A stretch of DNA of 56,269 nucleotides from Bacteroidota bacterium (GTDB lineage: Bacteria > Bacteroidota > Bacteroidia > Chitinophagales > LD1). Below the pieces are notes generated by a model. The model did no database searches. It had not been told where the DNA came from and worked only from the letters and a program-made list of their open reading frames with translations. The stretch is from the NCBI GenBank assembly GCA_040387015.1, contig JAZKEP010000183.1:1-56269 (forward strand). The letters run 5' to 3'. This document shows positions 35,952-56,269 of this stretch, in pieces. The position numbers were made by a program, and so were the translations under genes. Within the stretch, counting starts at the first letter, position 1; every line of letters starts with the position of its first letter.

Positions 35952-35994
35952 TTGCTTTTGGGATTTCGAAATTTGAATTAGGAATGTATTTTAT

Positions 35995-37204: not shown

Positions 37205-37259
37205 TAGCTGGTTATTAATGACTATCAGTGAATGGCAATCGCCACTATACTTAACATCA

Positions 37260-37838: not shown

Positions 37839-37926
37839 AGGATAAGATTTTGATTTTGGATAAAGGTAAAAAGTTTTAGTTCGAAGCTACGATTTCAGAG
37901 TTTGACGAATGAAGTCTATCTGTATT

Positions 37927-38391: not shown

Positions 38392-38446
38392 ACAAATGGA
38401 TTATGTAATGTTTTAAAATAAGAAGAGTAAAATAATTTGCTGTTTT

Positions 38447-38454
38447 TATGTTTG
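38447..38454 (+). promoter_or_regulatory. TAnnTTTG -7 box candidate (TATGTTTG) for serC, leaderless geometry
   Basis: A perfect match ending 4 nt before the serC ATG (38459). Confidence 0.35.
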
Positions 38455-38458
38455 CAGT

Positions 38459-39535: not shown

Positions 39536-39946
39536 ATTATTAGTCAAGAGCTGCTGATTCTTTACGCTGAAAGTAACTGAACTACTGCTCTGTGTTTTTA
39601 CTAACGTTCCTCATATCTTCGACTTTCCTTAAGGCAAAAACATTAGACTTTTTACTGATAAATCCCGTGCCGCCTCCATATAATCTCTTTTAGGGCTCTG
39701 TTATTGACAGTTGTATCACCACAGCATACTCTCTCCAAGATATTAGATTGTATGTATTGAAATCAAGCGTTGAGAAAATTTCACAGAAATATAGTCACAT
39801 CGAATCTTAAAAAATTATGCCCTAGTGTATTAAGTTCTTTGCTCCTGGAAATTTATAGAATTACGGAGGAATACAAAACATATACCTCATTTTAGTCTAG
39901 TTTTAGATGCCTTGTTGGTACAAAAGCATTCATTATTATTACTGGG

Positions 39947-40885
39947 ATGAAGTCTATACTAAATTGGCTTAGGGTATTATTATTTTTCCCGTTGCTCTAT
40001 TTTTTGTTCCGTGAAGTACGTTTTCAGCAGATACAAGTTGCCTTACAGCATGTGGATTGGTGGTTGTTGCTACTGGCTTTTTTCCTCTACAGTTTGAAAT
40101 ATACCTTGCAAGGTCTAAGATGGTACAACGCTGCACTCGCTCACGGCCTTCATTATCCTGTTTTGTTTTTTGTAAAAACACAGTTTGAAATTGCTTTTCT
40201 TGAAATGTTATTGCCTATTCCCGACTCCGAAGATGCTCTGAGGATTATAAAACTACGCGGACAGTCGGTGAATGTTGCTAACAGTGTAGCGGTTACATTA
40301 TTCGACCGTGTCATGGGTGTATTATTTATACTAATGCTGCTTCCTTTCACCGGTTGGCTGATGGCAGCTATTTTATTCAAACACATCAAAATCAGCTATA
40401 TAGGAATCGTTATCGGTTTTATTCCGCTATTTCTCTTTGCTCTCAACTACCGAAAAATTATCGCTTTTATGTTAGCGCTAATTGAGAGATTTACCGAATT
40501 GAATCATTCCTTTTTCGAAAATCTAAAACTAAGCATGGTTCAAAAAATAGAACTTCGGTACCGTTTATACGGTTTGCTAGGAACAATTACGTTCGGATTA
40601 GCAGGGGCTTTTTGTATATGGTTGCTTGTTCATTCGTTAGGGGCCAAAGTATCTTTTATTTCGTTGCTGCTATGTATTCCCTTCTTCCAAGGGCTCGGAT
40701 TGTATGAATCAACATTGGTTTTCGTGTTGCAGCAAATGGGGATAGGTAACGAGATCGCTGTAGTGGCAGGCACTCTCCATTTCCTGTTTCACGTTATAAT
40801 AATTTTAGCCGGAGGTGGAGTCTTTATGACTAATCCGTTAAAAACAGATATCTCCTTACCAAACTTTATTACAAAAAGACTGTAA
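39947..40885 (+). CDS. flippase-like UPF0104 (lysylphosphatidylglycerol-synthase TM region family) membrane protein
   Basis: 312-aa ORF with about 8 TM helices. LQGLRWYNAALAHGL...FLEMLLPIPDSEDALRI resembles the conserved RW...G...P-x-x-G/S-E/D-x-x-R core of this family. Confidence 0.65.
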   Translation: MKSILNWLRVLLFFPLLYFLFREVRFQQIQVALQHVDWWLLLLAFFLYSLKYTLQGLRWYNAALAHGLHYPVLFFVKTQFEIAFLEMLLPIPDSEDALRIIKLRGQSVNVANSVAVTLFDRVMGVLFILMLLPFTGWLMAAILFKHIKISYIGIVIGFIPLFLFALNYRKIIAFMLALIERFTELNHSFFENLKLSMVQKIELRYRLYGLLGTITFGLAGAFCIWLLVHSLGAKVSFISLLLCIPFFQGLGLYESTLVFVLQQMGIGNEIAVVAGTLHFLFHVIIILAGGGVFMTNPLKTDISLPNFITKRL

Positions 40886-40969
40886 TCCACACATCCTCTT
40901 ACTGATTAATAGTACAGCTCACATTGCAATACTCTTCGAATAATGATTTATTTGCACCAAAACATTCCT

Positions 40970-41344
40970 ATGAAATATATGTTGAGTGCATGCCTATTGG
41001 GTTTACTATTGAGCGGATGTAAAGCACCCGAAAAAGTAATTTGCAATAAGTGGCAAATTGTCAATATAACTTTCGATGGCGATATTCCGGTGAAAGATAA
41101 GGAGGATCTTCGAAAAAATTTTATGGCACAAAAAACCATACTGTTTAACTCAGATCATACAATGCAAATTGGAAATGAAGAGCCAAAAAAATGGAGGCTA
41201 TCTGTAAAAGCGGATACTTTATTTTTTCAGGAAAAAGACATTGAAACTGTAACATTGATTCGGAAATTAAGCACCCGTAAATCTAAACTTGAATGTCCTG
41301 GCAAGAACAGATCCTACTCCGTACATTTAAGTGCGGTTAAATAA
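40970..41344 (+). CDS. hypothetical lipoprotein
   Basis: Start chosen at MKYMLSACLLGLLLSGCKAP (lipobox LSGC). No other motif. Confidence 0.5.
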   Translation: MKYMLSACLLGLLLSGCKAPEKVICNKWQIVNITFDGDIPVKDKEDLRKNFMAQKTILFNSDHTMQIGNEEPKKWRLSVKADTLFFQEKDIETVTLIRKLSTRKSKLECPGKNRSYSVHLSAVK

Positions 41345-41398
41345 TATTGCCATTAGGATTAAAGGAACTTGTTCATATCCCTCTCCTAACTATACTCC

Positions 41399-42304
41399 AT
41401 GAGGTTAAAATTATCTTTTGCATGTATACTACTTATTATTTCGGTGGCTGCCGTATGGGTCAATTATTCTCCCTTACCTCGTTATAAAATAAAATCACCT
41501 ATAGTTTCCGAAGAGTTTACCGCTTTACATAAAGCCGAAGGCAAACGCATAGTCCTTAGCATTTGTATTCATTGTCACTTAAATAGTCAAACCGGAACAC
41601 TTGCCGGAAAACAGCATGGTAATCCAAGACGATTGGGCGATTTCAATTCAGGGAATATTACTCAAGACTCAGCCACAGGGATCGGAAAATGGAATGCTTC
41701 GCAGTTATACTATTTTTTGAAAACCGGCATCAAACCAGACGGTGATTATGTGTTTGACATGCCTAAATATCCTAATCTCAGTGAAGAAGATATAATAAGC
41801 ATAATCGCGTTTTTAAAAAGTGATGATACTTTGGTGCGAAAAACATATCTTCTAAATCCCAAACCCCGGTTTTCGTTTCTTACAAAACTTCTTTTACATA
41901 CTGCTCTTCAGCCACCCATATTAGAAGATAAAACTGTCTCCTCACCTGATACTAATAACCAAATAGCCTTCGGAAAATACTTGGCTACCGCGAAGTTCAG
42001 TTGTTATGAATGTCACAGCCTAAATACCGTTACTAATAACTACAATCAACCCGAAAAAAGTTGGGGATTTTTTAAAGGTGGTAACCCGCATGTAAATGAG
42101 GATCGTGAAAAAATTTATACCCCCAACATCTCTGGAGATACACTTGAAGGAATCGGTAAATGGAGTGAAGAAGAATTTAAGCGTACAATAAAAAATGGAA
42201 TTAAACCGGATGGAACTACTATCCGAGACCCAATGTTCCCATTTTACTTACTCAGTGATAAAGAAGTGAGGTCAATATTTGCGTACTTAAAAAGCGTGGA
42301 ATAA
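41399..42304 (+). CDS. membrane-anchored dihaem c-type cytochrome
   Basis: 301-aa ORF with an N-terminal hydrophobic anchor and two CxxCH motifs (CIHCH and CYECH). Each lies in a ~130-aa repeat ending in IKPDG...M(P/F)...L(S)(E/D)(E/K)(D/E)...I..(F/Y)LKS. Confidence 0.8.
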   Translation: MRLKLSFACILLIISVAAVWVNYSPLPRYKIKSPIVSEEFTALHKAEGKRIVLSICIHCHLNSQTGTLAGKQHGNPRRLGDFNSGNITQDSATGIGKWNASQLYYFLKTGIKPDGDYVFDMPKYPNLSEEDIISIIAFLKSDDTLVRKTYLLNPKPRFSFLTKLLLHTALQPPILEDKTVSSPDTNNQIAFGKYLATAKFSCYECHSLNTVTNNYNQPEKSWGFFKGGNPHVNEDREKIYTPNISGDTLEGIGKWSEEEFKRTIKNGIKPDGTTIRDPMFPFYLLSDKEVRSIFAYLKSVE

Positions 42305-42349
42305 ACCCCCGATAGAAACCATTGTGTAATTCTTATTTTTGATTTCAAA

Positions 42350-42556
42350 ATGCCAAACAAATCAGAAAATGTATTCGGGAAATTGGTGGTAGAATTTGTA
42401 TGGGTGGTGGTGGTATTTGTAGTAGTCATTAACATTGCCTTTTTCAAAAAACCACTCAATCTCTATGCCTACACACTTAGCATTAAACTGTTGCTGAGCA
42501 TCACTGTGATTTTATTGTTTTTAAAAGCCTTATGGAGACAGAACAAATTGCACTAA
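42350..42556 (+). CDS. possible small two-helix membrane protein
   Basis: 68-aa ORF with two hydrophobic stretches. It overlaps the next start by 25 nt and could be spurious. Confidence 0.3.
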   Translation: MPNKSENVFGKLVVEFVWVVVVFVVVINIAFFKKPLNLYAYTLSIKLLLSITVILLFLKALWRQNKLH

Positions 42557-43809
42557 CCGCTCGGGCTCTTTATGGCTTTCACTTAACCGTACATTATCTG
42601 TTTGCGGATGTGCCTATAGGATTATCAACCATAGGTGTTATACTAAGTGTCGTTAATCTGATATATAAAAATAACAGCGAAGAGATCCGTGAGAAATATT
42701 TGCAGTTATTTTTAGTGTCTTGGATATTAGCTGCTACTTCCGCCCTTGTGTATGAATTGGAGTACCGGCATAACTGGTTGGGGGTGGATGAAATACTAAC
42801 AGAATTTTACAAGCGACCTTGGATTACCGACATTCCCATGCTGGGATTTTTTCTTACTGGCATTATTCTGATTGTTTGTTTTAAGCGGAAGCTATGGATC
42901 AATGACAAGGCGTTCTTGAGCCTCAATTTGTTTCTTTTTATTTCAGCAATTACTACCAATTTGTGGGCAATTACCCTTAATACTCTAATGCAACTCCCCG
43001 AAGGCATCAGCTATTCCAATGGTTACCTCCAATTAGATTCAGGGCTCAGCCCACTCGTGTTTTCAAGGTATAATCTTCTAAGGTTACTTCACATAATCGG
43101 TTCTGCCACTATAAAAGCAGGTATCATGATTGGATTAACAGTAGCCATTGACCGCAAAAGGATGTTGCCTGAATATTTATCCTACCACCGGTTTATGCTA
43201 AAAACAGTGTTGCTGTTTATTGTAATTACAGGTATATCAGGCCACTTTAAAGTGTTAGTGATTGCAGAAAAGAGAGTACATACCTTTTTAATGATGGAGG
43301 GAATAAAAGATACTTCAACAAAATCAAATATATGTTTGTTCTGTTTGCCGGATAAGGAGAAGAATATACAAGGTTGGTCCATTAAAAACGGAATGAGATA
43401 TCTTATGCCAGCGAAACTATATGAAGGACTGGACCAAAATATAGGAACCGAACCCTATAATAATTATGGGGAAAGCATATTTACAAGTTACCATGTTATG
43501 CTTTGGGGATGGCTCATGCTATCCGTTTCGGTTGTGTTAGCATTGTTCTTGAAGAATCCATCTATTTATCTACACCTATTTATGTTAGGTACCGCATTAA
43601 TAAGTATTTTATGTGGCTGGTATGTTGCAGAGTTGGGAAGACAACCTTGGGCATTTTGGGGAATAGTAAAAGTAAACGAACTAATTACTCCCGGACTTAC
43701 TTCCGAACATTTGTATCTGAGTAAACTCGTTACTGTAGTTAACACATTCGTTTTATTCATAATGGCCATATTTGCGACAATTTTTGTCATCAAGCCTTTG
43801 AGGAAATAA
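42532..43809 (+). CDS. cytochrome bd oxidase subunit I (CydA)-like protein, divergent, short Q-loop
   Basis: 425-aa ORF aligned by eye to E. coli CydA. LTVHYLF matches the His19 region, LLHIIGS the His186 region and YHVML the Met393 region. GWYVAELGRQPWAF matches the conserved GRQPW motif. Confidence 0.65.
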   Translation: METEQIALTARALYGFHLTVHYLFADVPIGLSTIGVILSVVNLIYKNNSEEIREKYLQLFLVSWILAATSALVYELEYRHNWLGVDEILTEFYKRPWITDIPMLGFFLTGIILIVCFKRKLWINDKAFLSLNLFLFISAITTNLWAITLNTLMQLPEGISYSNGYLQLDSGLSPLVFSRYNLLRLLHIIGSATIKAGIMIGLTVAIDRKRMLPEYLSYHRFMLKTVLLFIVITGISGHFKVLVIAEKRVHTFLMMEGIKDTSTKSNICLFCLPDKEKNIQGWSIKNGMRYLMPAKLYEGLDQNIGTEPYNNYGESIFTSYHVMLWGWLMLSVSVVLALFLKNPSIYLHLFMLGTALISILCGWYVAELGRQPWAFWGIVKVNELITPGLTSEHLYLSKLVTVVNTFVLFIMAIFATIFVIKPLRK

Positions 43810-43884
43810 TGAAATTCCATAGAAAATATTTTGCAGACACGAATCCAAGAGCCTTACTACTGAATTGTCAAACCAACAATCAAA

Positions 43885-45549
43885 GTGACCTTCGCCTTGA
43901 ATGAATTACTACAGCGCTTTAAATCTTTTTTTCTTGGGATTTCAGAAAGTCACCAGAAAACACTTTGCCTACTGCTGCTTCTGGCTTTACATACAGGCTA
44001 TTATTTTAACTCGGGGCTTTATCAATGTCGCTATAGTTTATTCGAAGATCAGGAGATATTGATTACAACCGAAAAAATTAAAAATGCAGGAGTTCTTGAG
44101 GCGTTTACCGAACAAATACAATATGAAACAAGAGGAAGATTCAGGCCATTTTTTGTAGTGTATCGGATAGGGGCTTGCGCTCTTTTCGGTGACAATATTC
44201 AATGGCATCATCATTTTTTCTATACTGTATTTGTAATTAATACACTTTTACTTTTTTGTTGGGCCAGCCTAATTGGTTTTTCTCCTCTTCTTTCGCTAAT
44301 GTCCTCGCTATTAGTATTTATAGGCACTCAATCTAATATAGGTTGGCGATTAGCTAACGGGGAAAATTTTGCGATGCTCTTCTTAAATGTCGGCATCCTT
44401 TGTTTCCTATGTGGCCTAAATCTGAGAAAAATAAATTTCCTCTTAGCTGGTGGTTTGTTGATTCTACTAGCTGCTTTAAATAAAGAATCATTTATATTCT
44501 GTTATGGATTTTTTCCGCTACTGTACTTAAGGAATACTCTGAAGGAAAAGCCAAATTGGGGGAAATTCTGGTCACTTTCTTTATTAGCAGCAGGATGCAT
44601 TGGCCTATATATAATCTGTATCCGCTTATTTATTATGGATCCCGATGCAATGAAATATGCGGGCAGCACAATTTCATTTAAGGATGTTTTAGAACTTCAA
44701 TTTGGAATGTTTACAACACAAAATTACGTTGTAAACTATCCTCGTATTTGGCAGACCTTCATTTTCCAAGGGTCATACTTCCAACCCTACATACTTCTTT
44801 TTGCTTTAACTACTGGAGCCAGTTGCCTTTACCTTCCGTTTCGCAAGTTTCTGTTATATAACATCGCAATAGCATTGGCACTATTAGTTGTACACAAGTT
44901 GCTTTATCTGCGAATAATATTATCTAATATTTATTTGTACCCTGCAATCGTAACCATTGGGTTTGCAGTCATAAATCAAATAGATCTTCTTTTTAAACAT
45001 CAGAAAAAATTGCCAGCTACAATCCTGCTAGTAGCTATAATTTCTGTAATAATAACTCAGGGAAAGCTTAGCTATTCTTATGCTGCGAATTACTCCTCGG
45101 AGAATGACGCAGCTATTGCATTGACTGATAATTTGGCAAAAATTTGCACAAATACACCGCTTTATATTCAAGCTGATCCTTTATTACATGTAGAATTTAT
45201 ATATGGTATAAAAACCAGATTAAAATCATTAGGATGTCCCAGTAAGTTTTTTTGTTCTGTTTTTGAACAAGGTGATACTGCTGAGGCACTACGTATTATG
45301 AAAGTAAGTGACCCAGCTTTAATTCCTTTTATTAGAAATCAATTTCACAAACAGTTCTCAGATAAAATTGTTAAGCAAAAACCGGAAACAAGTTTAGACG
45401 GAAAAAATAATTGGGTGGTTATTCAGCGCCCCGGCAAAAGTCCTAGAAAGTTTGAAGAAGTAGAACGGGGGCAATATACGCAAAGCACATATAATGCTCC
45501 GGGATTTTACACCATCAGCACACTCCTCCCGACAACCACGCGAAATTAA
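43885..45549 (+). CDS. large polytopic membrane protein, GT-C-like glycosyltransferase candidate
   Basis: 554-aa ORF (GTG start in the track) with about 12 hydrophobic helices. The first loop has acidic residues and GRFRPFF. The soluble C-terminal ~150 aa fit the usual GT-C (ArnT/PMT-like) layout. Family not verifiable by eye. Confidence 0.5.
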   Translation: MTFALNELLQRFKSFFLGISESHQKTLCLLLLLALHTGYYFNSGLYQCRYSLFEDQEILITTEKIKNAGVLEAFTEQIQYETRGRFRPFFVVYRIGACALFGDNIQWHHHFFYTVFVINTLLLFCWASLIGFSPLLSLMSSLLVFIGTQSNIGWRLANGENFAMLFLNVGILCFLCGLNLRKINFLLAGGLLILLAALNKESFIFCYGFFPLLYLRNTLKEKPNWGKFWSLSLLAAGCIGLYIICIRLFIMDPDAMKYAGSTISFKDVLELQFGMFTTQNYVVNYPRIWQTFIFQGSYFQPYILLFALTTGASCLYLPFRKFLLYNIAIALALLVVHKLLYLRIILSNIYLYPAIVTIGFAVINQIDLLFKHQKKLPATILLVAIISVIITQGKLSYSYAANYSSENDAAIALTDNLAKICTNTPLYIQADPLLHVEFIYGIKTRLKSLGCPSKFFCSVFEQGDTAEALRIMKVSDPALIPFIRNQFHKQFSDKIVKQKPETSLDGKNNWVVIQRPGKSPRKFEEVERGQYTQSTYNAPGFYTISTLLPTTTRN

Positions 45550-46382
45550 GTAGGGTTTTCAACTAATTTTTTGACTTTCCCGAACAGACTCTTACGCATT
45601 TTCAATTGTCTGTAGAGCAGATTGAAATAATAAAAATTGATAGTGATAATATTAAAAGTATGGGGATGATTAACAACTCCATATTCCTTACTAAATATTT
45701 TGTCCTCATTTACAAAAGTTCCAAAAATTCTGTCCCAAAGAATTAAAATACCTCCATAGTTTTTGCCATAAGCAGCTCTACCACTATGATGATGTACCCG
45801 ATGATGAGACGGAGTAACAAACAAATACTCAATCCAAGCTGGCATTTTTTTGATGTAGTTATTATGCGAGAAGAATTGAAACGCTGCGCTTGTTACATAT
45901 GCAGCCAAGATAATCTCCGGTGAAAAGCCAATAAAAGCTAATGGTATATAAAACACTCCAAAGACATGTTGGGTAACACCCTGCCTTAGACCCACTGAAA
46001 AATTGAATTCTCTAGAGCTATGATGGACGATATGGGAGGCCCAGCCTAAAGAAGTATTATGGCCAATTCTATGTGCCCAGTAATACAGAAAATCCAACAA
46101 TAAAAGACAACAAAAGAAGGAGATAAAATTATCTGCAAGTTTGACAGGACTTATATTGTGAACCTGAATGAGTACTTGAATTGCAATTGCCTTAATGATT
46201 AAACCAGTCATTACCGTGCCAAGCATGCCTGCAGAAATGTTTAACAACACATCTTTAATCCTGTCAGTTTTTCCTTCCTTAATCAGAAAAGTAATCGCCT
46301 CTAGCACAATTACTGCAAGATATAGTAGAATAAAATACTTAAAATCTTCCGCCTTCATACAGTGGTTTAAAACACCTCCCAA
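45546..46382 (-). CDS. fatty acid hydroxylase / sterol desaturase superfamily membrane protein
   Basis: 278-aa ORF with three His boxes: HRIGH, HIVHHSS and HHRVHHH. Confidence 0.8.
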   Translation of the reverse strand: MGGVLNHCMKAEDFKYFILLYLAVIVLEAITFLIKEGKTDRIKDVLLNISAGMLGTVMTGLIIKAIAIQVLIQVHNISPVKLADNFISFFCCLLLLDFLYYWAHRIGHNTSLGWASHIVHHSSREFNFSVGLRQGVTQHVFGVFYIPLAFIGFSPEIILAAYVTSAAFQFFSHNNYIKKMPAWIEYLFVTPSHHRVHHHSGRAAYGKNYGGILILWDRIFGTFVNEDKIFSKEYGVVNHPHTFNIITINFYYFNLLYRQLKMRKSLFGKVKKLVENPT

Positions 46383-47326: not shown

Positions 47327-47355
47327 AGTTATGTTTTAATTTGGAACAAATCAAG

Positions 47356-48273: not shown

Positions 48274-48295
48274 ATTTCTATATTTAACCTTCCGA

Positions 48296-49909
48296 ATGAG
48301 TATGAAAAACAATAATACAAAAATCGCTTTAGCATTAATCTCGGTTTTGGTCACCATTATGCTTACATCTCCGGTGGTGTATGGTTATTTATTTTGTCCC
48401 CTGGATAGTAAGTTTTTGGGGGTTGCGGGTTTGCGGCCAATTGAACAATTTTATTACTTCAGCGAAGGTCCATCACAGGCTATTAGAGGACATCTTTTGT
48501 TTACTGATAAATACGGACGCCTGCCCGCTGCAGACATTCTTATCAACCCAATAGGTAATATTATCGGATTGATTTCGCAAGTAACAGGCACATCCCTATC
48601 TATTGCTTTTAATATTTTCAGAATAGCATCTTCCTTGTTACTTATTTTTTCTTTTTACTTTTTAGCCAAACAAATTATTACCTCTTCTTTTACTTTGTTA
48701 GTAGCCATCATTTTGTATTGCTTCTCGGCAGGCTTTGACTCTATCTTTCATCTGTTCAATTTTTCGCTTATTGATGCTGTGGATGATTCCATGCCCGAAG
48801 CAAATATGTTTATCTCCATGAGCGGTGAATACTACCTTCCTTTAGCAAATGCTTTATTTATTTTAACGTTATCGTTTGCATATAAACTTATTTACAAAAA
48901 GCAGAAACAGATGTTGTTATGTGGACTTTCGTTGTTGACATTAGGTGCAGTGTACGTGTATGGGTTAGTGACAGCCGTTATAATTATTTCCATTGCAGCC
49001 CTTTACACTGGCTACTCGGAAAAGCAAACAAAACGTGCTATCATCATAATATCCAAATTGTTGTTATTCTGCTTGCCTATCGTTGGGTATTATTTATGGT
49101 TAGTTTTTCGATTCCCCTCTATTGACGATGAGGGCTGGTTTTCCTTTCCGAATTTTTGGGCTTTGATATCAACTTTTGGCTTCGCCTTTCTTTTTGTAAC
49201 TCTTGGATTGTTTCTTAAAAGTCGAAGAAAAATTTCTGATGAGACGTTTCTTTTGCTCTGGGTAGCTATAACATTGATCCTTGTTTATTTACCTCAACCC
49301 TTCTTACCGATTCAGATTCAGATACTTATAGGCTTAGGAGCACCTCTTTCCATCATGTTTACTACATCGCTGGAAACAATAAGTAAATTGGCCTTCCAAA
49401 AAATTACGGCCTTGAGCAAAAATGCACGGAACGTCCTGTCAGGCATGTTTATTTTCAGTATAGCCGTACTTAGTGCCAGCACAAATTTTAGCTTCTATAC
49501 CCAACAATTCAGCGATTTGCAGAAACATGTTTTGCCTTGGTACATAGACTCTGAAGTATATAATGCCATGGAGTGGTCAGCTCAAAATATTTCGGAAAAA
49601 AAACTTGTAATTACCTCTAGAAAACTAGGATTTATTTTTTCATCAGTCACAGCTTGCCCCGTCTATACGGGAGTAGCAAGATTTCGTGAAAAAACACTAG
49701 AACAGAAGGATACAGAAAAAGCGTTAAAATTACTTAAAGCAAATAGAGTTGAAGAAGCAAGTCAACTATTTAGTGAAACTGAGGCTGACTATATATTTCT
49801 AGATAAATCATTGTCTGGAGCTGATTTTCAAAAATTCACTACTCTCTTAAAGACAATTTACGTTGAACGCTTTAACAATCCGGAGGTTTCAATTTTTCAA
49901 CTTAAATAA
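48296..49909 (+). CDS. large polytopic membrane protein with soluble C-terminal domain, GT-C-like candidate
   Basis: 537-aa ORF with about 11 hydrophobic helices. An early extracytoplasmic loop has DAVDDSMPE, and about 130 aa at the C-terminus are hydrophilic. No family verifiable by eye. Confidence 0.5.
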   Translation: MSMKNNNTKIALALISVLVTIMLTSPVVYGYLFCPLDSKFLGVAGLRPIEQFYYFSEGPSQAIRGHLLFTDKYGRLPAADILINPIGNIIGLISQVTGTSLSIAFNIFRIASSLLLIFSFYFLAKQIITSSFTLLVAIILYCFSAGFDSIFHLFNFSLIDAVDDSMPEANMFISMSGEYYLPLANALFILTLSFAYKLIYKKQKQMLLCGLSLLTLGAVYVYGLVTAVIIISIAALYTGYSEKQTKRAIIIISKLLLFCLPIVGYYLWLVFRFPSIDDEGWFSFPNFWALISTFGFAFLFVTLGLFLKSRRKISDETFLLLWVAITLILVYLPQPFLPIQIQILIGLGAPLSIMFTTSLETISKLAFQKITALSKNARNVLSGMFIFSIAVLSASTNFSFYTQQFSDLQKHVLPWYIDSEVYNAMEWSAQNISEKKLVITSRKLGFIFSSVTACPVYTGVARFREKTLEQKDTEKALKLLKANRVEEASQLFSETEADYIFLDKSLSGADFQKFTTLLKTIYVERFNNPEVSIFQLK

Positions 49910-51613
49910 TCCCTTTTCATTTATTTTATAGATACCGATTGCCTGGGTATTATAGTCACTATTTTCATCCCTTTCAATTGCCTTAAGCAGAGTGTATGAG
50001 TAATTCTTTCTATAAACAGCATTAATATAGTTCACTATCATCTTCATCCTCTTTTCTGATGAAAACCAACGAGCGTTCGGTTGACGAGCCACATAATCAA
50101 CTTGGTCTATAAACTCCAAGGAACCAGTTACGCGTTTCATATAGCTATTATATTCATCAAAAATATATAATACACCATTATCAAAGCTGATATAGGTATT
50201 ATTCGGATTATAGGTGTCATTGTCAAACAAACGAATTGAAATATTATCCCAACAAGAGATATTTAATACAACTAAGCTGTTTGTAAAATCATTTATAGTA
50301 GCTCTGACTTTGTCCATGTAACCTGCATCATTTTTTTTTATCTGATATAACTGAAAAAAGCCAAGCCCTCTCCAAAGTACGCATACTATTATTGCTGTTG
50401 AGACAACGAAAGAAAGTCGTTTACTTATACGCGTCAACTGGGGATCAATCAGACACACCAATAGCATTACAATTAAAAATAGCAGCAGCGACTCGTTTAC
50501 TTTCGTCTCCACCTTCATAAATAAATTGGCAAACAAAAAAGTGCCCCAAAAAACTCCAGAAAATAACAGTTTTCCTAAAATTGATTTAGGGGAGCGTTTC
50601 CGGGAATAGAAAGGCCATAGTATATTAATAACCACTAGTAATAAGAACAACCCATTTTCATTCCTACAAATATCATTGACAAGCTTAATCGCCCGGTCTT
50701 TAACAATGGGCAATCTGGTGATATACTTAAAGAAATAGCCCGGTGATTTGTCAAGAGGCACTATGCCAATCTTCTGGAAAAAAACCTGATTCAAATGTTT
50801 AGTATCTGTAAAGAAAAAATGTGATGCTGCAAGATATTTTATGGTATCCGTTTTTGTTAACAACCGTACATCGGAAAGTTCTCCTTTAAAATCAACAAGC
50901 GTATTTTCATAAGGAACAATTCCTAAATATCTGTGCCCTTCGGGTGTTCTCGGAACATGCGTATATACATACAGGAAGAACAAAATGAATAAACATGGGA
51001 GAATAATTTTGACCGCTCGATTCATATCTACTCTTCCTTCAAAAAAAAGCAAGAGTAAGAAGGCTGTAAATAAAAATGTGAGTGCTATTGCAGGCTCCGG
51101 CCTTCGTAAACAAGAAACCAAAAAAGCAAGATAACAGGATATAAAAAATAAGGTAGATATTTTTTGATGATGTAATAGTTTAAGGAGAAATACTACGAAT
51201 ACGAGGATGATTATCAAGAAGGAATGCCTGGTAATTTCTGGTAGTAAAGCAACCGACACAAAAATTGCGATAAAGAAAAATAGAACCGTAATTCTTAACA
51301 TAGCATCGTGATATAAAAATTTTTTGAGGGACTGAAAAATATTGAACAGGAAAGCACCAATAAAAAATGTAAAAGATAGAGTAAGAGAATCATACCATTC
51401 GAAAAAGGGAAAATGTGTATATAAAAATGCTATAGCATCACCTATAAAAATTTGAAGAATAAAAGTTTCGGGAAGAGCTAACGGTTTAGGGATTAATAGC
51501 CCTTTGGCATAAACCAGAAAGAAAATGTCTGTTTCATTTTCATAATAACTTCCTAAAAAGTAATATAAAAGAACAGAAACAAATAAGATTATGAAAAAAT
51601 AGAGGAATTTCAT
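49889..51613 (-). CDS. large polytopic membrane protein with soluble C-terminal domain (unknown family)
   Basis: 574-aa ORF with about 10-12 hydrophobic helices interrupted by a ~100-aa loop. It lies 68 nt downstream of, and co-directional with, the ABC ATPase. Confidence 0.55.
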   Translation of the reverse strand: MKFLYFFIILFVSVLLYYFLGSYYENETDIFFLVYAKGLLIPKPLALPETFILQIFIGDAIAFLYTHFPFFEWYDSLTLSFTFFIGAFLFNIFQSLKKFLYHDAMLRITVLFFFIAIFVSVALLPEITRHSFLIIILVFVVFLLKLLHHQKISTLFFISCYLAFLVSCLRRPEPAIALTFLFTAFLLLLFFEGRVDMNRAVKIILPCLFILFFLYVYTHVPRTPEGHRYLGIVPYENTLVDFKGELSDVRLLTKTDTIKYLAASHFFFTDTKHLNQVFFQKIGIVPLDKSPGYFFKYITRLPIVKDRAIKLVNDICRNENGLFLLLVVINILWPFYSRKRSPKSILGKLLFSGVFWGTFLFANLFMKVETKVNESLLLFLIVMLLVCLIDPQLTRISKRLSFVVSTAIIVCVLWRGLGFFQLYQIKKNDAGYMDKVRATINDFTNSLVVLNISCWDNISIRLFDNDTYNPNNTYISFDNGVLYIFDEYNSYMKRVTGSLEFIDQVDYVARQPNARWFSSEKRMKMIVNYINAVYRKNYSYTLLKAIERDENSDYNTQAIGIYKINEKGLFKLKN

Positions 51614-51680
51614 GAAATTCGATAAAGACGTTCTGCTATTAGAAACTTCACACCCTGGATTAATTAAAAAAATCGTTCAG

Positions 51681-52988
51681 TTAAAACTCCATCGTTGTTT
51701 TCCAATCGGCAACAGGAAGAAGTGGACACGAAAAATTTTCCTGATAGTTGACGCCTTTAAACAACTTATCGCTTCTGACAACTCTGAAATAAAGCAGCTT
51801 TTCGAAAGACCGCACCTTTTGTCTGGAAGTATCAGCAACGTAAAAACTGACCGAAAATATTCCATGATTGAGAATGCCTTTGGGCAATTTTACAGTTTGT
51901 GTGTAATTGCCTTCCAAAGTTATATCCACAAAGTCATCTTCGCGTTTAATGCGATATGGAGAAAGACTCATAATATTATTGCCGAACCTGTCTGCAATCA
52001 CCGCCGATAATATCACAGGTATGTTTAGCAGTTTTTCATACGAGAAACTTATTTCCACTTCATCATCCATATATATTTCGGATGTTACTGCTTTACCGGC
52101 TGACCTGACAAGCGCCCCTTTCAAGCGAATTTTAGTATCAACGGGGTTATGCTCATCGCTTCCCTGGACCTGAGTTGGCAATAGAGGTAAGTCTCCTGAC
52201 TTTTGATTTTCTGAGTTAGGCCTTGCGGCAACACCGCTTTTCAAAAAAATATAGTTATTGCTGTTCACATATTTTTCAATGATACTCTGAATAGTGTCAA
52301 ATCCCTTCGAAGTTCCCTGTTCGAGCAACAAACCATGTGTGCATAAACTTTGCACTGTTTTCATTTCGTGACTGGCGAGAATGATAGTTCTTCCGCGCGC
52401 TGCAATTTCTTTTATCCGCGCAGACGATTTCTCTCTAAAGTTCATATCGCCAACACTCAACACTTCATCCATAATCAGAAGATTAGATTTGAGTGTGGTG
52501 TACAAACTGAATGCCAAACGCATGAACATGCCGCTTGAATAATGTTTAACGGGTGTCTCCTTAAATTGCTTCAACTCGCTGAATTCAAAAATATCTTCCA
52601 GCACTTCTTCAATCTCTTTTTTTGTGTAACCCATCAAACGGGCAACCATGTATACATTGTCAATACCAGAAAGATCGGGATGAAAACCTGAACCGATGTC
52701 AAGTATAGAAGAAAGCTTGCCGCGGTAACTGATACTGCCTTTGTCCGGCTTCAGCAAACCCGAGATAATTCTCAAAAGAGTTGATTTACCAGCTCCGTTA
52801 TTTCCTACAATTCCAAGTATCTCCCCTTGTTTTAGTTGAAAACTAATATTGTTCAAGGAAACAACTTCGCGCACCGTAGAGCCTACCCCCTGCAAAGTGC
52901 CATCATCGTAACCTTTAAAAGTTTTTCCGATTCCGTTTACTTCCAGCACAATATTTTCACCCAACATAACTAAATAGCCTTTTGACAT
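51681..52988 (-). CDS. Wzt/TagH-like ABC transporter ATP-binding protein with C-terminal extra domain
   Basis: Walker A is GIVGNNGAGKST. The signature YSSGMFMRLAF is typical of polysaccharide or teichoic-acid exporters. Walker B is LLIMDEVLSVGD and the H-loop is LASHE. About 170 extra C-terminal aa follow. Start chosen at MSKGYLVMLGENIVLEV. Confidence 0.8.
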   Translation of the reverse strand: MSKGYLVMLGENIVLEVNGIGKTFKGYDDGTLQGVGSTVREVVSLNNISFQLKQGEILGIVGNNGAGKSTLLRIISGLLKPDKGSISYRGKLSSILDIGSGFHPDLSGIDNVYMVARLMGYTKKEIEEVLEDIFEFSELKQFKETPVKHYSSGMFMRLAFSLYTTLKSNLLIMDEVLSVGDMNFREKSSARIKEIAARGRTIILASHEMKTVQSLCTHGLLLEQGTSKGFDTIQSIIEKYVNSNNYIFLKSGVAARPNSENQKSGDLPLLPTQVQGSDEHNPVDTKIRLKGALVRSAGKAVTSEIYMDDEVEISFSYEKLLNIPVILSAVIADRFGNNIMSLSPYRIKREDDFVDITLEGNYTQTVKLPKGILNHGIFSVSFYVADTSRQKVRSFEKLLYFRVVRSDKLFKGVNYQENFSCPLLPVADWKTTMEF

Positions 52989-53055
52989 GCTAAAATAACA
53001 GCATGGTTCCCAATTAAACATACTTTTCATAACAAAACAAACTAACGTTTATTTT

Positions 53056-53063
53056 TAAGTTTG
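53056..53063 (+). promoter_or_regulatory. TAnnTTTG -7 box candidate (TAAGTTTG) for the sulfotransferase gene, leaderless geometry
   Basis: A perfect match ending 4 nt before the ATG at 53068. Confidence 0.35.
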
Positions 53064-53067
53064 TCTT

Positions 53068-53955
53068 ATGGCGAAAGTGTTGATACATATTGGATATCCT
53101 AAGGCGGGCTCCACTTATTTACAGGAGTGGTATTCGCGTCATCCTGCCCTTCACTATAAGGGTAAAGGAGTCTTGGGTTTTGATAACAATTGGGATATTG
53201 CCACTTACGCTGAAACAACAGAAAAGTTGCATGAATGTTTTGTTTTAAGCAGTGAAGACCTTAGCGTTTGGAAGGGAGAAATGGATATGTCTACCCTTGA
53301 TAACAAAAAAGACTTTGACATACGCGCTTATCAGGAAAAACTTGCAGATACTTTGTTTGCCGTGTTCCCTAATGCACAAATTCTTATATGCACCCGCGGG
53401 TTTGAGTCTATGCTTTACGCCATGTATAATCAAAATGTTTCCATAGGAGGTATTCTCAGATTCAAAGATTTTATGGCGAAGCTAAATGTGTATCTGGCTG
53501 ATTTTTATGATTATAGTTTTGTTATTCAGCTTTACCGCGAAAGATTTGGCAAGAATGTACTTGTGCTGCCGGTTGAGCTTTTAAAGGATGATAGTAAAAA
53601 ATTTGTCCGGCTCATTGAAGATGCCATAGAACTTGAGCATCGCTATTATTTACCCGCAGTCGTAAATGCTTCTATGAACAATAGTTTTATTCATACTTAC
53701 CTCGTTTTTTCAAAAACACTGTATTCCTTGCTCAAGTTGTTTCCGGCTTCATTCAATCAAAAGGTTTATCAGAAGTATGTTCGAATGCTGGCAAAGGAAA
53801 AGCCCCATCCGTTTATGAAGGCAATGAATCGTTTAATAAACGGAGAAACAGATTTGAAAGTAAAGCCTGAAGATTTGAATCTATTCAGAGACAAGGCTGA
53901 AATTCTTAGGAACGAACCTCTGTATCAACCTTACCTGAAAGATTATTTGCTTTAG
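53068..53955 (+). CDS. sulfotransferase family protein
   Basis: 295-aa ORF. IGYPKAGSTYLQEW matches the PAPS 5-prime-phosphosulfate binding loop (PKxGTTxL). ICTRGFESMLYAMY resembles the 3-prime-phosphate binding R..S motif. Confidence 0.65.
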   Translation: MAKVLIHIGYPKAGSTYLQEWYSRHPALHYKGKGVLGFDNNWDIATYAETTEKLHECFVLSSEDLSVWKGEMDMSTLDNKKDFDIRAYQEKLADTLFAVFPNAQILICTRGFESMLYAMYNQNVSIGGILRFKDFMAKLNVYLADFYDYSFVIQLYRERFGKNVLVLPVELLKDDSKKFVRLIEDAIELEHRYYLPAVVNASMNNSFIHTYLVFSKTLYSLLKLFPASFNQKVYQKYVRMLAKEKPHPFMKAMNRLINGETDLKVKPEDLNLFRDKAEILRNEPLYQPYLKDYLL

Positions 53956-54855
53956 TTAACTCTCCGAAAAAAACTTAGAAAAGAACGATTTGGGCTTTTC
54001 AAGTTGAGGGAACTCACCGGGAAATTCGGATATAAGAAATTTTATCAAGTCTGGTTCGTGAACATTCAAATCCTGGTAAGGATATTTTTTTATGAAGGGC
54101 ACTTGTTCAACTACCGTTGGATGATTTACACTATCATAGGCAATAAAGAAATCATGATCAGGAGCGTACACTTCCACATCCTTAATTTCGGTTTGAGGCT
54201 TGATATAATAGAGAAGGAATTGCGCTTCAGCGGGTCGCATGTTTACTACCGCAGCTAGTCGCATATTATTAGTGAAATTAGTATTTGAACCATGCACTAC
54301 CCGGTGGTCCCAAGCCACAGCATCACCTGGCCCCAGGTAAATATCAGTAAGATACTTGTGTAACCTTTCAGTAGGAATATGCCTGAATGTATCCGGGATA
54401 GAAACACCCCTTGTGTAATCAAACAGGCGATGACTGCCTTTCAAAAGGCAAATTGCTCCATTTTTATCATTGGTCTCATCCAGGGCCACCCACATATTTA
54501 TAGAGCGGTACCTCGTTTCATCCACATGTGCCCAATCTTGATGCAGGTGCATAGCACTATCAGGCTTGGGGTGTTTCACAGACATAGCAGCAAAAACCGG
54601 TACGTAATCATTCAGATATTTCTGTGCAGCCGGAACGAGTACTTTCTGAACCCCCAAATCAATGTTCGCTTTAGTATCACCTCCTTCAATCCAATGGCTT
54701 ACATAAAATGATTTGTTCGCATTATCCATTCTGTTCTGTTCATATACCTGGCGCAAATCTTTTACTTCATCTTTATTGATGAGATTACGAATAATGGTAT
54801 AACCATATTTCGCAAATTTTTCCTCCATATCATCGGCATTAAAAACTCTCTTCAT
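53956..54855 (-). CDS. phytanoyl-CoA dioxygenase (PhyH) family Fe(II)/2-oxoglutarate oxygenase
   Basis: 299-aa ORF with an HxD facial-triad start in HLHQDWAHVDE and the distal His in DHRVVHGS. Confidence 0.75.
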   Translation of the reverse strand: MKRVFNADDMEEKFAKYGYTIIRNLINKDEVKDLRQVYEQNRMDNANKSFYVSHWIEGGDTKANIDLGVQKVLVPAAQKYLNDYVPVFAAMSVKHPKPDSAMHLHQDWAHVDETRYRSINMWVALDETNDKNGAICLLKGSHRLFDYTRGVSIPDTFRHIPTERLHKYLTDIYLGPGDAVAWDHRVVHGSNTNFTNNMRLAAVVNMRPAEAQFLLYYIKPQTEIKDVEVYAPDHDFFIAYDSVNHPTVVEQVPFIKKYPYQDLNVHEPDLIKFLISEFPGEFPQLEKPKSFFSKFFSES

Positions 54856-54991
54856 TATTCAACTATTAAGCTGTGATATATTATTAAAAGACCTCCCTAC
54901 GCAACACAAATTTTCGCATTGATTAACCCCATGCGAACATAAACAAGATATGCCTTTATTTGCTATTTTCATAGTCTGATAAAAATCATGT

Positions 54992-55987
54992 ATGGATACA
55001 TCTGCAAATACAGAAAAGTTATTCCCCGCTCGTCACACTTTTGTGCGCAACGAAGCACTTAGAAATGAATTACATGAAGGCGGCTATAAGGTCGTTGGCG
55101 GCTTAGGTAAGGATGTTATTGAAGAAATAAATGCACTTTATAACAGCAGCCACGATTTGAAAGAAACCGGAATGTTTTATACCCTGTATTCCAAAGACAT
55201 CGCCTATCGTCAGCGCATTTTCGATTCGTTAAATAAAATTTTATCAGCGTATTATGATGAGCATTTAACTGACTATAAGATTGCTTACAACATTTTTGTG
55301 GTGAAAAACCCGGGTAAGGAAAGTGAATTTTTTGTTCACCAGGATCCTAGTATGGTAGATGAGTTTAAATATTCTCCTCTCCATATCTGGTTGCCTTTGT
55401 GTGATATTGATGAAAACAACGGGGCACTTTGTTTAACTCCCGGCACCAATCATCTATACATGCCATACCGGAGTGTGGCATTCCCTAATGCGTTTGAAAA
55501 AGTAAACGATTTGGTGCGCGACTACATGATGCCTGTATATATGAAGGCAGGAGAAGCTATCTTCTTCGACCCGCGTGTAGTGCATTGTTCGCTGCCTAAT
55601 TTCTCTGATAAAACCCGTGTGGCTGTGCTCACTGGAGTGGTGCCTAAAGAAGCCGAAGTGATAATCACACACCAAGAGCCCGATGAGGCAACTAAGATTG
55701 AACTGATTAGACAGAAAGATGATTTCTATATTCAGGCTGATGATTTTTATCTTACCTGCAAGTGTCGTCCTGCTTTGGGAACTTTATCGCAAGTGGTGAG
55801 CTATACACCGCCTGTTTATAGCAAAGAAGATTTTTTGGAGTTCACAAAGAAAAAGGGATTAAGCCCTTTAAATATTTTGCCTCCGTCTTTAAACACCGAG
55901 TGTATAATGTATGGCGAACCTATTCAGGCAAACAATAAGTACCATAGTAAGAATGCGCCCGCTGATGTTATGTTAGGGCACAAATAG
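54992..55987 (+). CDS. phytanoyl-CoA dioxygenase (PhyH) family Fe(II)/2-oxoglutarate oxygenase
   Basis: 331-aa ORF with HxD in FFVHQDPSMVDE and the distal His in DPRVVHCS. Confidence 0.75.
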   Translation: MDTSANTEKLFPARHTFVRNEALRNELHEGGYKVVGGLGKDVIEEINALYNSSHDLKETGMFYTLYSKDIAYRQRIFDSLNKILSAYYDEHLTDYKIAYNIFVVKNPGKESEFFVHQDPSMVDEFKYSPLHIWLPLCDIDENNGALCLTPGTNHLYMPYRSVAFPNAFEKVNDLVRDYMMPVYMKAGEAIFFDPRVVHCSLPNFSDKTRVAVLTGVVPKEAEVIITHQEPDEATKIELIRQKDDFYIQADDFYLTCKCRPALGTLSQVVSYTPPVYSKEDFLEFTKKKGLSPLNILPPSLNTECIMYGEPIQANNKYHSKNAPADVMLGHK

Positions 55988-56107
55988 AAAATCCTCATAT
56001 ACGATCGTCAGTATTTCTCATTTTTTGAACCCTTATTTGTGAGCTACCGGTTAATTATAGAATAGATCGTTCCGAGTCATGGCGCACTATTTCTGAAAAA
56101 TTTAAAA

Positions 56108-56269
56108 CTATTCTATTTCCAATTCTCTTGATGTAATATAATCCTTAAATGCATCGCGAGCTTTTATCAGATAGTGCCCCTTTTTGAAAATTGAAATTGA
56201 ATGATAGGCTAATTGCTGAACAGCTTCAGCAGTTGTTTCCTCGGTAACTAATAGAGCTTCCGCATAAGT
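56108..56269 (-). CDS. C-terminal fragment of an unidentified protein (N-terminus beyond right edge)
   Basis: Hand translation of the minus strand gives 53 open codons (TYAEALLVTEETTAEAVQQLAYHSISIFKKGHYLIKARDAFKDYITSRELEIE) ending at the TAG (56108-56110). No motif recognised. Confidence 0.35.
   Translation of the reverse strand, partial: TYAEALLVTEETTAEAVQQLAYHSISIFKKGHYLIKARDAFKDYITSRELEIE

Follow-up and report, generated by a model that had tools for sequence, protein, structure and literature searches.

The right-hand end of contig JAZKEP010000183.1 (GenBank assembly GCA_040387015.1), from a Bacteroidota bacterium placed among the Chitinophagales, is AT-rich and closely packed with genes for membrane proteins, haem proteins and tailoring enzymes. 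This raises the question of whether these genes belong together and, if they do, what it is that they make. The stretch that was analysed, referred to here as the window, is the entire 56269-bp contig. The region in question runs from position 39536 to the end of the window at 56269, and contains 14 complete open reading frames (ORFs). We find that the genes of this AT-rich end form a genuine Bacteroidota cluster, rare and uncharacterised, that is conserved as a unit. Its marker gene encodes a 537-amino acid (aa) membrane protein that structure modelling identifies as a glycosyltransferase of the GT-C fold, and the best conserved of its products is a dihaem cytochrome c.

Conservation of the cluster in related bacteria

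A first-pass annotation of this DNA had proposed that the region was one undescribed unit, and the comparison of synteny in relatives supports this. A core comprising a UPF0104 protein, the dihaem cytochrome c, three polytopic proteins, a Wzt-like ATPase and PhyH oxygenases is kept together in about 12 independent loci (here given numbers of the form L001). These come from Chitinophagales, Chitinophagaceae and Chryseobacterium metagenome-assembled genomes (MAGs) and from metagenomes, among NCBI, ENA, JGI and Logan contigs. Eleven of the 14 window genes have orthologues that are clustered on independent contigs. Homologues of the 537-aa protein are extremely scarce, with only 20 proteins in 5.8 billion clusters, and they occur in 3 of 185,579 species genomes (one Chitinophagales, one Chitinophagaceae and one Chryseobacterium MAG). 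The long contigs that carry such a homologue all show the same neighbouring genes. Our searches of the literature found no paper describing a cluster of this composition.

Co-occurrence was counted by clustering all the ORFs of ten loci, with L013-L016 serving as further examples. The 537-aa protein is present in all ten, the 574-aa polytopic protein and PhyH oxygenases (2-7 copies) in eight each, the UPF0104 protein and cytochrome c in seven each, the ABC ATPase in six and the 554-aa polytopic protein in five. More variable are genes for a carbamoyltransferase, a B12-radical SAM enzyme and a WelO5-like protein, each found in four of the ten, and those for the sulfotransferase-like, CydA-like and YdjC proteins, each found in three. 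Within the loci the genes are frequently separated by 0-15 bp, or overlap.

In most of the relatives the genes are mainly collinear on one strand; those of the window are rearranged. Its 14 ORFs run as five on the plus strand, three on the minus, one plus, two minus, one plus, one minus and one plus, making six switches of strand. Seven had been counted previously, a number that is reached only if a minus-strand fragment at the end of the contig is included. The overlaps and abutments at 45546/45549, 46367/46382, 49889/49909 and 53955/53956 are as noted before. The inverted order of the window (ABC > 574 > < 537, YdjC >) recurs in its nearest relative, L015 (56-67% identity), and the scrambled arrangement is therefore genuine.

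A glycosyltransferase of the GT-C fold

The 537-aa protein is encoded at 48296-49909 on the plus strand. It has no match in Pfam or NCBIfam, and a profile built from 18 members of its family finds no GT-C chain in the PDB. It had previously been stated that the region contained no glycosyltransferase, but this was wrong. A model calculated with AlphaFold2 (AF2) using 18 homologues has a predicted local distance difference test score (pLDDT) of 88.6 and a predicted template modelling score (pTM) of 0.88. When this was compared with the PDB using Foldseek the top 25 matches were all GT-C enzymes, with E values from 6.5e-10 to 1.7e-2 and a probability of 1.00; beyond these the scores collapse, the next probability being 0.15 or less. 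The matches are to STT3, AglB, PglB, AftA, DPY19, ArnT, AftD and PMT, with the highest TM-score (0.58) for AftA. The model has approximately 11 transmembrane (TM) helices, a helical periplasmic insert following TM1 and a C-terminal soluble domain of about 120 aa. On the basis of this modelling the protein is a GT-C fold glycosyltransferase, and since its sequence resembles that of none of the GT-C families described so far it probably founds a new, very rare one. There is a precedent in GT136, a new GT-C family that was recognized by modelling within a three-component system (PMC11127046).

Taken at their longest, the ORFs of the YdjC gene (minus strand) and of the GT-C gene (plus strand) are divergent and have 62 bp in common, at 48296-48357. 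The YdjC protein of L015, the nearest orthologue, is 296 aa in length and the GT-C protein is listed with 535 aa in the database, so the start of the YdjC gene probably lies some 37 codons further in. The two genes probably share a short divergent promoter region.

Two further families of polytopic proteins

Two other large membrane proteins accompany the glycosyltransferase. The 554-aa protein (43885-45549, plus strand) is encoded directly upstream of the GT-C gene in most relatives, and has homologues with 20-31% identity in L002, L004, L005, L009 and L016. It has no match in Pfam, NCBIfam or the PDB. The 574-aa protein (49889-51613, minus strand) is usually encoded directly after the ABC ATPase. 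Its family comprises 118 representative clusters in 1.84 billion proteins, all of about 550-600 aa, with no Pfam match among 54 members. Word-indexed protein searches with the single sequence and with an alignment returned only the window copy and one relative.

Both are thus orphan families. There is a weak link between them, with an hhalign probability of 38-43% and an hmmsearch hit of 2.4e-5 to one member; comparison of either with the 537-aa family by hhalign gave a probability of about 5% or less. Profile-profile comparisons and searches of PDB and Pfam profiles gave nothing significant for either family, and an AF2 model of the 574-aa protein calculated from two sequences has a pLDDT of 37. 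They are compatible with a GT-C assignment in architecture alone, both having many TM helices and a C-terminal soluble domain.

The haem proteins

The dihaem cytochrome c (41399-42304, plus strand) is membrane-anchored, with two CxxCH motifs and a match to Cytochrom_C with E = 1e-12. It is the most conserved protein of the cluster, having 55-70% identity to its orthologues in L001, L002, L005, L006, L011 and L016. In 7-8 loci, which represent different subtypes, its gene is placed between that of the UPF0104 protein and the GT-C or other polytopic genes, and the distance to the neighbouring genes is often 3-45 bp. A pattern scan of JGI metagenome contigs, which has limited sensitivity, gave no confirmed copy of this cytochrome and thus none outside such clusters. 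The protein is similar to the cytochrome subunits of the membrane-bound dehydrogenases for alcohol, fructose and glucose (8gy2_B, 3.6e-14).

The adjacent gene (42532-43809, plus strand) encodes an orphan CydA-like haem protein (PF01654, 6e-39) that aligns to the structures of CydA and AppC. Its residues H21, E75, H187, M323 and E367 correspond to H19, E99, H186, M393 and E445, the ligands of haems b558, b595 and d, and are invariant in the three copies from these clusters, as is the GRQPW motif. The Q-loop region is about 70 residues shorter than that of Escherichia coli AppC. The gene is present only in the window, L002 and L005, and no CydB-like ORF was found in any of these three clusters. 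A canonical CydAB oxidase was considered, and rejected on the lack of CydB.

Two genes of this part of the cluster are split in relatives. The cytochrome c gene of L012 is divided into ORFs of 185 and 138 aa (7844-8774), and the UPF0104 gene of L005 into ORFs of 120 and 72 aa (4145-4734). These are either assembly frameshifts or decaying copies.

Candidates for transport across the inner membrane

The first gene of the cluster (39947-40885, plus strand) encodes a polytopic protein of the UPF0104/LPG_synthase_TM family, to which the flippase domain of MprF belongs (PF03706, 2.5e-18, 67 bits). Its homologues are usually encoded directly upstream of the cytochrome c gene. From its family membership it is a candidate flippase for a lipid-linked intermediate.

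A second component is an ABC ATPase of the Wzt/TagH type (51681-53030, minus strand) with a conserved C-terminal extension of about 180 aa. It matches the NCBIfam models for TagH, Wzt and RfbE with E values of 1e-52 to 2e-49, all of them below the equivalog cut-offs, and its best matches in the PDB are Aquifex aeolicus Wzt (8dku, 5e-54), TarH, mycobacterial RfbE and TagH. Orthologues with 36-64% identity are found in seven loci. None of the 14 window ORFs matches ABC2_membrane, as would a Wzm permease. Genes for an ABC-2 permease are present in relatives (L009:3090-4112, L013:2420-3274, L014:3291-4145 and L016:16215-16296). In L016 the permease gene is about 7 kb from that of the ATPase, at the far end of a PhyH array, and for this reason the permease of the window may lie beyond the end of the contig.

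Tailoring enzymes

Two PhyH-family Fe(II)/2-oxoglutarate (2OG) oxygenases are encoded close to the end of the contig. The first (53956-54855, minus strand; PF05721, 6e-21) has the HxD...H motif and is the second most conserved gene of the cluster, with orthologues of 47-72% identity in all subtypes. Its nearest solved relative is EvdO2, an oxygenase that acts on the sugars of orthosomycins (1e-8). The second (54992-55987, plus strand; PF05721, 2e-17) has 27-33% identity to the genes of the PhyH arrays of related clusters, where there are 3-8 copies.

The YdjC-family deacetylase (47356-48357, minus strand; PF04794, 1e-25) belongs to the NaxD/LgmC/HpnK superfamily. It scores below the ChbG and HpnK cut-offs, and has orthologues with 35-37% identity in L002, L005 and L015. 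Next to it are genes for a 319-aa cytoplasmic protein that is possibly an acyltransferase of the GNAT type (46367-47326, minus strand) and for a membrane-bound di-iron enzyme of the fatty-acid hydroxylase/desaturase type (45546-46382, minus strand; PF04116, 5e-27) with three His boxes. A hydroxylase gene of this family is also present at the edge of L002; identity with the OlsE equivalog was rejected, as that model gives 68 bits against a cut-off of 475. The 319-aa protein has no match in the PDB and no homologue in the related loci, and is thus specific to the window. A 133-aa lipoprotein (40943-41344, plus strand) has an LSGC lipobox and no Pfam or NCBIfam match, and is likewise without a homologue in the related loci. 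Lastly, a sulfotransferase-like protein (53068-53955, plus strand) is 52-56% identical to its orthologues in L004 and L005. No signal peptide is present in any of the soluble tailoring proteins, namely the PhyH, sulfotransferase-like and GNAT-like ones.

Most of these assignments had been made from the sequence by the first-pass annotation. Those of the UPF0104 protein, the dihaem cytochrome c, the CydA-like protein, the fatty-acid hydroxylase, the YdjC protein, the ABC ATPase and the two PhyH proteins were confirmed by Pfam or NCBIfam, and that of the lipoprotein by its lipobox. The GNAT and sulfotransferase assignments are weaker, in that matches are seen (Acetyltransf_9, E = 1.4e-3; Sulfotransfer_3, E = 1.2e-3) but both fall below the Pfam cut-offs; the sulfotransferase-like protein additionally has the PKxGST motif of a phosphoadenosine phosphosulfate (PAPS) loop.

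What the related clusters add

Among the 14 ORFs of the window there is no match to a GT-A or GT-B glycosyltransferase, Wzm, SusC/D, a nucleotide-sugar enzyme, or a polyketide synthase (PKS) or nonribosomal peptide synthetase (NRPS). The absence of these hallmarks, noted previously, therefore stands for the window; it does not extend to the related clusters, where genes for GT2, UbiA, UDP-sugar dehydrogenase, aminotransferase and ABC-2 permease proteins are found. The hallmarks that are absent here, such as a donor synthase, may lie beyond the end of the contig.

In one relative, L006 (uncultured Chitinophagaceae CAZCXH010000014.1, 1432-17136), an Arn-like set surrounds the trio of UPF0104, cytochrome c and GT-C genes. 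Its members are genes for a UDP-sugar dehydrogenase, two DegT aminotransferases, an N-acetyltransferase and two GT2 proteins, together with one that is epimerase/decarboxylase-like. This set is the clearest clue that the transferred group is an aminosugar. The same locus also has a carbamoyltransferase, a B12-radical SAM enzyme and KASIII. L009, L013 and L014 have an ABC-2 permease, GT2, a fatty acyl-AMP ligase, KASIII and a PhyH-PhyH fusion, while L002 has UbiA together with a radical SAM enzyme.

Proteins of the WelO5 family are encoded at L001:11635-12510, L002:12723-13598, L009:2318-3178 and L011:11689-12564. They have H162-C-G164 and H260, with the HxG motif of aliphatic halogenases in place of the hydroxylase HxD. 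The gene comes immediately after that of the GT-C protein in L001, L002 and L011, and lies elsewhere in the cluster in L009. In L004 and L005 the slot following the GT-C gene is occupied by a sulfotransferase-like gene. The exchange of genes at this position suggests chlorinated and sulfated variants of the product.

Some further proteins are seen in the relatives. One subtype (L001:1076-5738, L011:4056-8725 and L012:1863-6525) encodes 1106-aa FG-GAP/UnbV_ASPIC proteins and PAP2/vanadium-haloperoxidase-like proteins, as well as a 332-aa protein resembling SQHop_cyclase_C (an alpha/alpha toroid) within an array of 6-8 PhyH genes. A further group of membrane-anchored proteins, 380-440 aa in length and without a Pfam match, has the GDS(Y/T) and DxxH motifs that typify SGNH esterases and acyltransferases. 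They are encoded at L001:8734-9903, L012:8806-10029, L011:8875-10014, L016:111-1274, L002:5895-7082 and L013:13512-14708. Their genes, which adjoin that of cytochrome c or directly precede that of the GT-C protein, belong to loci without the 554-aa protein, and there is none in the window.

Composition and boundaries of the region

The region had been described by eye as AT-rich relative to the first 39.5 kb, and calculation bears this out. The GC content is 36.7% for 39536-56269 and 42.7% for 1-39535. The mean GC per gene is 0.370 for the 14 complete ORFs of the region and 0.429 for 27 upstream ORFs (Mann-Whitney p = 3e-5), and the corresponding means at third codon positions (GC3) are 0.356 and 0.438 (p = 4e-4). 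The shift is modest and gradual, and the boundary at 39.5 kb is soft, because the housekeeping genes from about 32.8 kb onward (gldB, redoxin, pyrophosphatase, TPM, LemA, DinB and serC, 32793-39535) already have a GC of 0.37-0.43. Flanks could be measured for six relatives, and in four of these (L004, L001, L006 and L012) the cluster is 2-3 GC points below its own flanks.

On the left, serC is followed by an intergenic gap of 411 bp (39536-39946) that is the probable boundary and promoter region of the cluster. It contains no ORF longer than 41 aa, in agreement with the ORF-free gap of about 410 bp reported earlier, and promoter-like sites are no more frequent there than in shuffled sequences. 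On the right, the 3′ end of a minus-strand ORF (53 open codons and a stop, 56110-56269) runs off the contig. It has no similarity to the genes of related loci, and so may be either the right edge of the cluster or an addition specific to the window. The boundary on this side cannot be extended from the window since this spans the whole contig.

The upstream 39 kb carries ordinary Bacteroidota genes, including those for GldB, NadE, Kup, pyrophosphatase, LemA, DinB and SerC. We note an S15/PepX-type peptidase with a C-terminal sorting domain of the type IX secretion system (T9SS) at 21913-25038, and the gliding-motility lipoprotein GldB at 32793-33881. These two indicate that the contig is from a gliding Bacteroidota lineage, in agreement with the Chitinophagales origin of the closest homologues of the cluster.

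There is no tRNA and no Rfam match in the window, searches for riboswitches and non-coding RNA included. No flanking repeats were found in 38-56.3 kb, and no integrase domain among the 14 ORFs. There is thus no evidence for a mobile, horizontally acquired island; the GC content is six points lower, but integrase, tRNA and flanking repeat are all lacking and the right end is missing. A scan for sigma-70 promoters and terminators gave counts equal to those of shuffled sequences, although such a scan is ill-suited to Bacteroidota promoters. A search of the intergenic gaps of the window for precursors of ribosomally synthesized and post-translationally modified peptides gave only random short ORFs, with no conserved precursor-peptide ORF.

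A proposed function for the cluster

We consider it quite plausible, if still short of probable, that the region is one functional cluster that makes or decorates a glycoconjugate of the cell envelope, either a glycan or a glycolipid. From the gene content, its conservation, the GT-C fold and the family assignments we can propose substrates, an order of steps and a role for the haem proteins. A sugar precursor, either linked to a lipid or containing one, would be tailored on the cytoplasmic side by the PhyH oxygenases, the sulfotransferase-like enzyme, the possible acyltransferase and the membrane-bound fatty-acid hydroxylase. The YdjC deacetylase might convert a lipid-linked N-acetyl-hexosamine to the free amine, in the manner of NaxD, which deacetylates undecaprenyl-phosphate-GalNAc before its transfer to lipid A by a GT-C enzyme (PMC11279074). 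The intermediates would cross the inner membrane by means of the Wzt-type ABC transporter, the UPF0104 flippase-like protein, or both. On the periplasmic side the 537-aa GT-C enzyme is predicted to move the sugar from polyprenyl-phosphate donors to an acceptor, probably with the assistance of the 554- and 574-aa proteins. The dihaem cytochrome c, here together with the CydA-like protein, would give or take electrons for a periplasmic oxidation step, which could be the oxidation or epimerization of the sugar or of its donor. The system for tailoring an envelope lipid or glycan that had been suggested previously agrees with the enzyme content, including the elements of periplasmic transfer and redox chemistry; of the accompanying statements, that there is no glycosyltransferase did not hold, and that the locus is of no known type was overstated.

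A number of observations weigh against this assignment of function. Among the ORFs of the window there is no GT2 or UbiA synthase of a polyprenyl-phosphate sugar, no nucleotide-sugar gene and no ABC-2 permease. Profile searches gave no fold for the 554- or the 574-aa protein, and the model of the latter has a low pLDDT. In the 537-aa family there is no clearly invariant acidic residue in the first periplasmic loop, where a GT-C enzyme is expected to have one, the loop-1 consensus D69 being less than 90% conserved; the family does have an invariant E166, and E176 and E314 are nearly so, all of these being in later loops. The UPF0104 family is not known to flip polyprenyl-linked sugars. There is no recognizable periplasmic dehydrogenase to act as partner for the cytochrome c, and the CydA-like and YdjC genes are found in only 3-4 loci. 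Lastly, the PhyH arrays of the relatives (up to eight copies), and their HxG halogenases, B12-radical SAM enzymes, carbamoyltransferases, fatty acyl-AMP ligase and KASIII, resemble a cluster for a specialized metabolite equally well.

This last point leads to the strongest alternative, which we judge to be somewhat unlikely: a biosynthetic gene cluster for a heavily oxidized and sulfated glycolipid or oligosaccharide (chlorinated and carbamoylated in relatives) that is secreted by the ABC transporter and is not a structural component of the envelope, with the GT-C proteins performing late extracytoplasmic glycosylation or self-resistance steps. The complement of the relatives, with 3-8 PhyH proteins, WelO5-type HxG halogenases, TobZ/NodU-type carbamoyltransferases, B12-radical SAM enzymes, methyltransferase, fatty acyl-AMP ligase and KASIII, is in keeping with this, as are the very rare and patchy distribution, the tailoring genes that differ from locus to locus and the similarity of the conserved PhyH protein to the orthosomycin oxygenases. 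Yet the cluster lacks a core of the PKS, NRPS or terpene kind. Its core genes encode membrane proteins that are typical of the assembly of envelope glycoconjugates (GT-C, Wzt-type ATPase and UPF0104), L006 has its Arn-like aminosugar set, and we know of no GT-C enzyme from the pathway of a secreted natural product. It is less probable still that the region comprises two independent modules lying side by side, one for respiration or redox chemistry (cytochrome c and a CydA-like oxidase) and one for glycan tailoring, so that the haem proteins stand outside the glycan chemistry. The CydA-like gene is found in only three of about 12 loci, and no redox enzyme of the glycan module obviously requires a periplasmic cytochrome. 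Moreover, CydA homologues that lack the quinol site and use alternative donors are respiratory enzymes in the OR-C and OR-N groups (bioRxiv 10.1101/2021.01.16.426971). Against two modules, the cytochrome c is the very protein that is most conserved (55-70%), it is embedded between the UPF0104 and GT-C or polytopic genes in 7-8 loci, and the JGI pattern scan, within its limited sensitivity, showed no copy outside such clusters.

Since the best fold matches are the oligosaccharyltransferases STT3, AglB and PglB, the GT-C protein might instead glycosylate a periplasmic protein or a ribosomal peptide, whose residues would be modified by the oxygenases and radical SAM enzymes. Some relatives do have proteins resembling Asp/Asn beta-hydroxylase, JmjC/cupin and FGE-sulfatase proteins, and radical SAM-SPASM enzymes and small ORFs. 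The family of the first of these, Asp_Arg_Hydrox, is however also that of the lipid A hydroxylase LpxO. The 537-aa protein lacks the large C-terminal domain of the oligosaccharyltransferases with its WWDYG-type motif, the domain here being only about 120 aa; AftA, ArnT and AftD match almost as well, with AftA giving the highest TM-score; and the gaps of the window contain no conserved precursor peptide. Modification of a protein or peptide is thus very improbable. The six strand switches, the gradual shift in GC, and the presence of a lipoprotein, a GNAT-like protein and a fatty-acid hydroxylase with few or no counterparts in relatives could be taken to indicate that unrelated accessory genes have come together by chance in a variable, AT-rich region, or that the arrangement is an artefact of assembly. 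However, with 11 of the 14 genes having orthologues that are clustered on independent contigs, and L015 sharing the scrambled order, this is effectively refuted by synteny.

Returning to the envelope glycoconjugate, there is a more specific version in which the dihaem cytochrome c is the obligatory partner of the new GT-C family, with the CydA-like protein as its private oxidase in some lineages, so that the extracytoplasmic modification of a glycan or glycolipid is coupled to electron transfer. We regard this as unlikely. It could operate by the periplasmic oxidation or epimerization of the polyprenyl-phosphate sugar, or of the sugar once transferred. We know of no bacterial glycoconjugate pathway with a redox-dependent step of this kind. 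If it were correct, the product would be a previously unseen envelope glycoconjugate of Chitinophagales that is poly-hydroxylated and sulfated, or in relatives chlorinated or carbamoylated.

Were the broader proposal of an envelope glycoconjugate to be correct, the cluster would provide a new GT-C family and two further orphan polytopic families that are invisible to annotation by sequence. It would represent a pathway for a Bacteroidota surface glycoconjugate with unusually dense oxidative tailoring, in which one position of the locus is occupied by either a sulfotransferase or an aliphatic halogenase. This would also be the first c-type cytochrome, sometimes with a CydA homologue that lacks CydB, to be genetically embedded in a system for periplasmic glycosylation. 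That would give a testable function for orphan proteins resembling cytochrome bd, and redox chemistry performed on lipid-linked sugars outside the cytoplasm. In practical terms it would yield new glycan-modifying enzymes (for sulfation, chlorination and hydroxylation) and a set of bioinformatic markers with which to find similar clusters.

Comparison with known systems

The first-pass annotation stated that the region matched no known type of locus, which was overstated. Because the relatives supply the missing parts, namely GT2 and UbiA donor synthases, nucleotide-aminosugar genes and an ABC-2 permease, the locus can be seen to resemble the logic of the NaxD/FlmK, Lgm, Arn and mycobacterial arabinogalactan systems. 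By analogy with Arn, NaxD/FlmK, Lgm, Gtr, GT136 and arabinogalactan, a lipid-linked glycoconjugate would be exported by an ABC transporter, and finished in the periplasm by GT-C enzymes using polyprenyl-phosphate sugars.

The FlmF2-NaxD-FlmK system of Francisella and Acinetobacter and the LgmABCD system of Bordetella are like the window in bringing together a YdjC-superfamily deacetylase, a candidate flippase and a GT-C enzyme. The parent logic is that of ArnBCADTEF in E. coli and Salmonella, and the gene set of L006 matches ArnA, ArnB and ArnC step for step. By contrast, the GT-C protein of the window has no sequence similarity to ArnT, FlmK or PMT_2, its candidate flippase is UPF0104 and not ArnE/F, and there is no GT2 in the window. 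The lipid A hexosamine pathways in turn lack the orphan polytopic pair, the Wzt-type ATPase, the PhyH arrays, the sulfotransferase or halogenase, the cytochrome c and the CydA-like protein.

The assembly of mycobacterial arabinogalactan, with export of galactan by Wzm-Wzt, the GT-C enzymes AftA, Emb and AftD, and addition of GalN by Rv3779, likewise combines an ATPase of the Wzt/RfbE type with several polytopic periplasmic transferases. The likeness extends to the individual proteins, in that AftA gives the highest TM-score with the 537-aa model and mycobacterial RfbE is among the best matches to the ATPase. It differs in phylum and protein families, there are no genes for decaprenyl-phosphoarabinose here, and the haem proteins and oxygenase arrays are absent there. 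Three-component systems for extracytoplasmic glycosylation (Gtr, and the GT136 pentofuranose system of Citrobacter youngae; PMC11127046) embody the same concept, in which a polyprenyl-phosphate sugar synthase, a flippase and a GT-C enzyme modify a glycan that is exported by an ABC transporter. In the case of GT136, too, the GT-C enzyme was recognized only by structure modelling, and has about 11 TM helices, an insert after TM1 and a C-terminal soluble domain; the UbiA-family gene of L002 resembles the polyprenyl phosphoribose synthases of such three-component systems. The flippase is however UPF0104 here and MATE or GtrA there, the window has no synthase, and its cluster is much larger, with redox and tailoring genes.

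Two other systems share single features with the cluster. In the hopanoid genes hpnI-hpnJ-hpnK-hpnL a YdjC deacetylase of the HpnK family is paired with a UPF0104 protein of the HpnL family, as here, and GT2 and radical SAM genes are present in some of the relatives. Membership of the HpnIJKL pathway was rejected; the HpnK model gives 51.7 bits against a cut-off of 232.6, and there is no match to HpnL or squalene-hopene cyclase among the window genes. The OR-C and OR-N groups of the cytochrome bd superfamily (bioRxiv 10.1101/2021.01.16.426971) also have a CydA homologue that retains the haem ligands in the absence of a canonical CydB, and the CydA-like gene here similarly lies near that of a c-type cytochrome that could donate electrons. 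In OR-C, however, CydA carries a fused haem c domain and has a second CydA-like subunit next to it, whereas here the dihaem cytochrome c is a separate protein, there is no second CydA and the context is that of a glycan cluster.

Set against all of these systems, what is new in the cluster is its three very rare families of membrane proteins, and its dense and variable oxidative, sulfo- and halo-tailoring that includes arrays of 2OG oxygenases. New above all is the conserved embedding of a c-type cytochrome, sometimes together with an orphan CydA-like protein, in a system of this kind.

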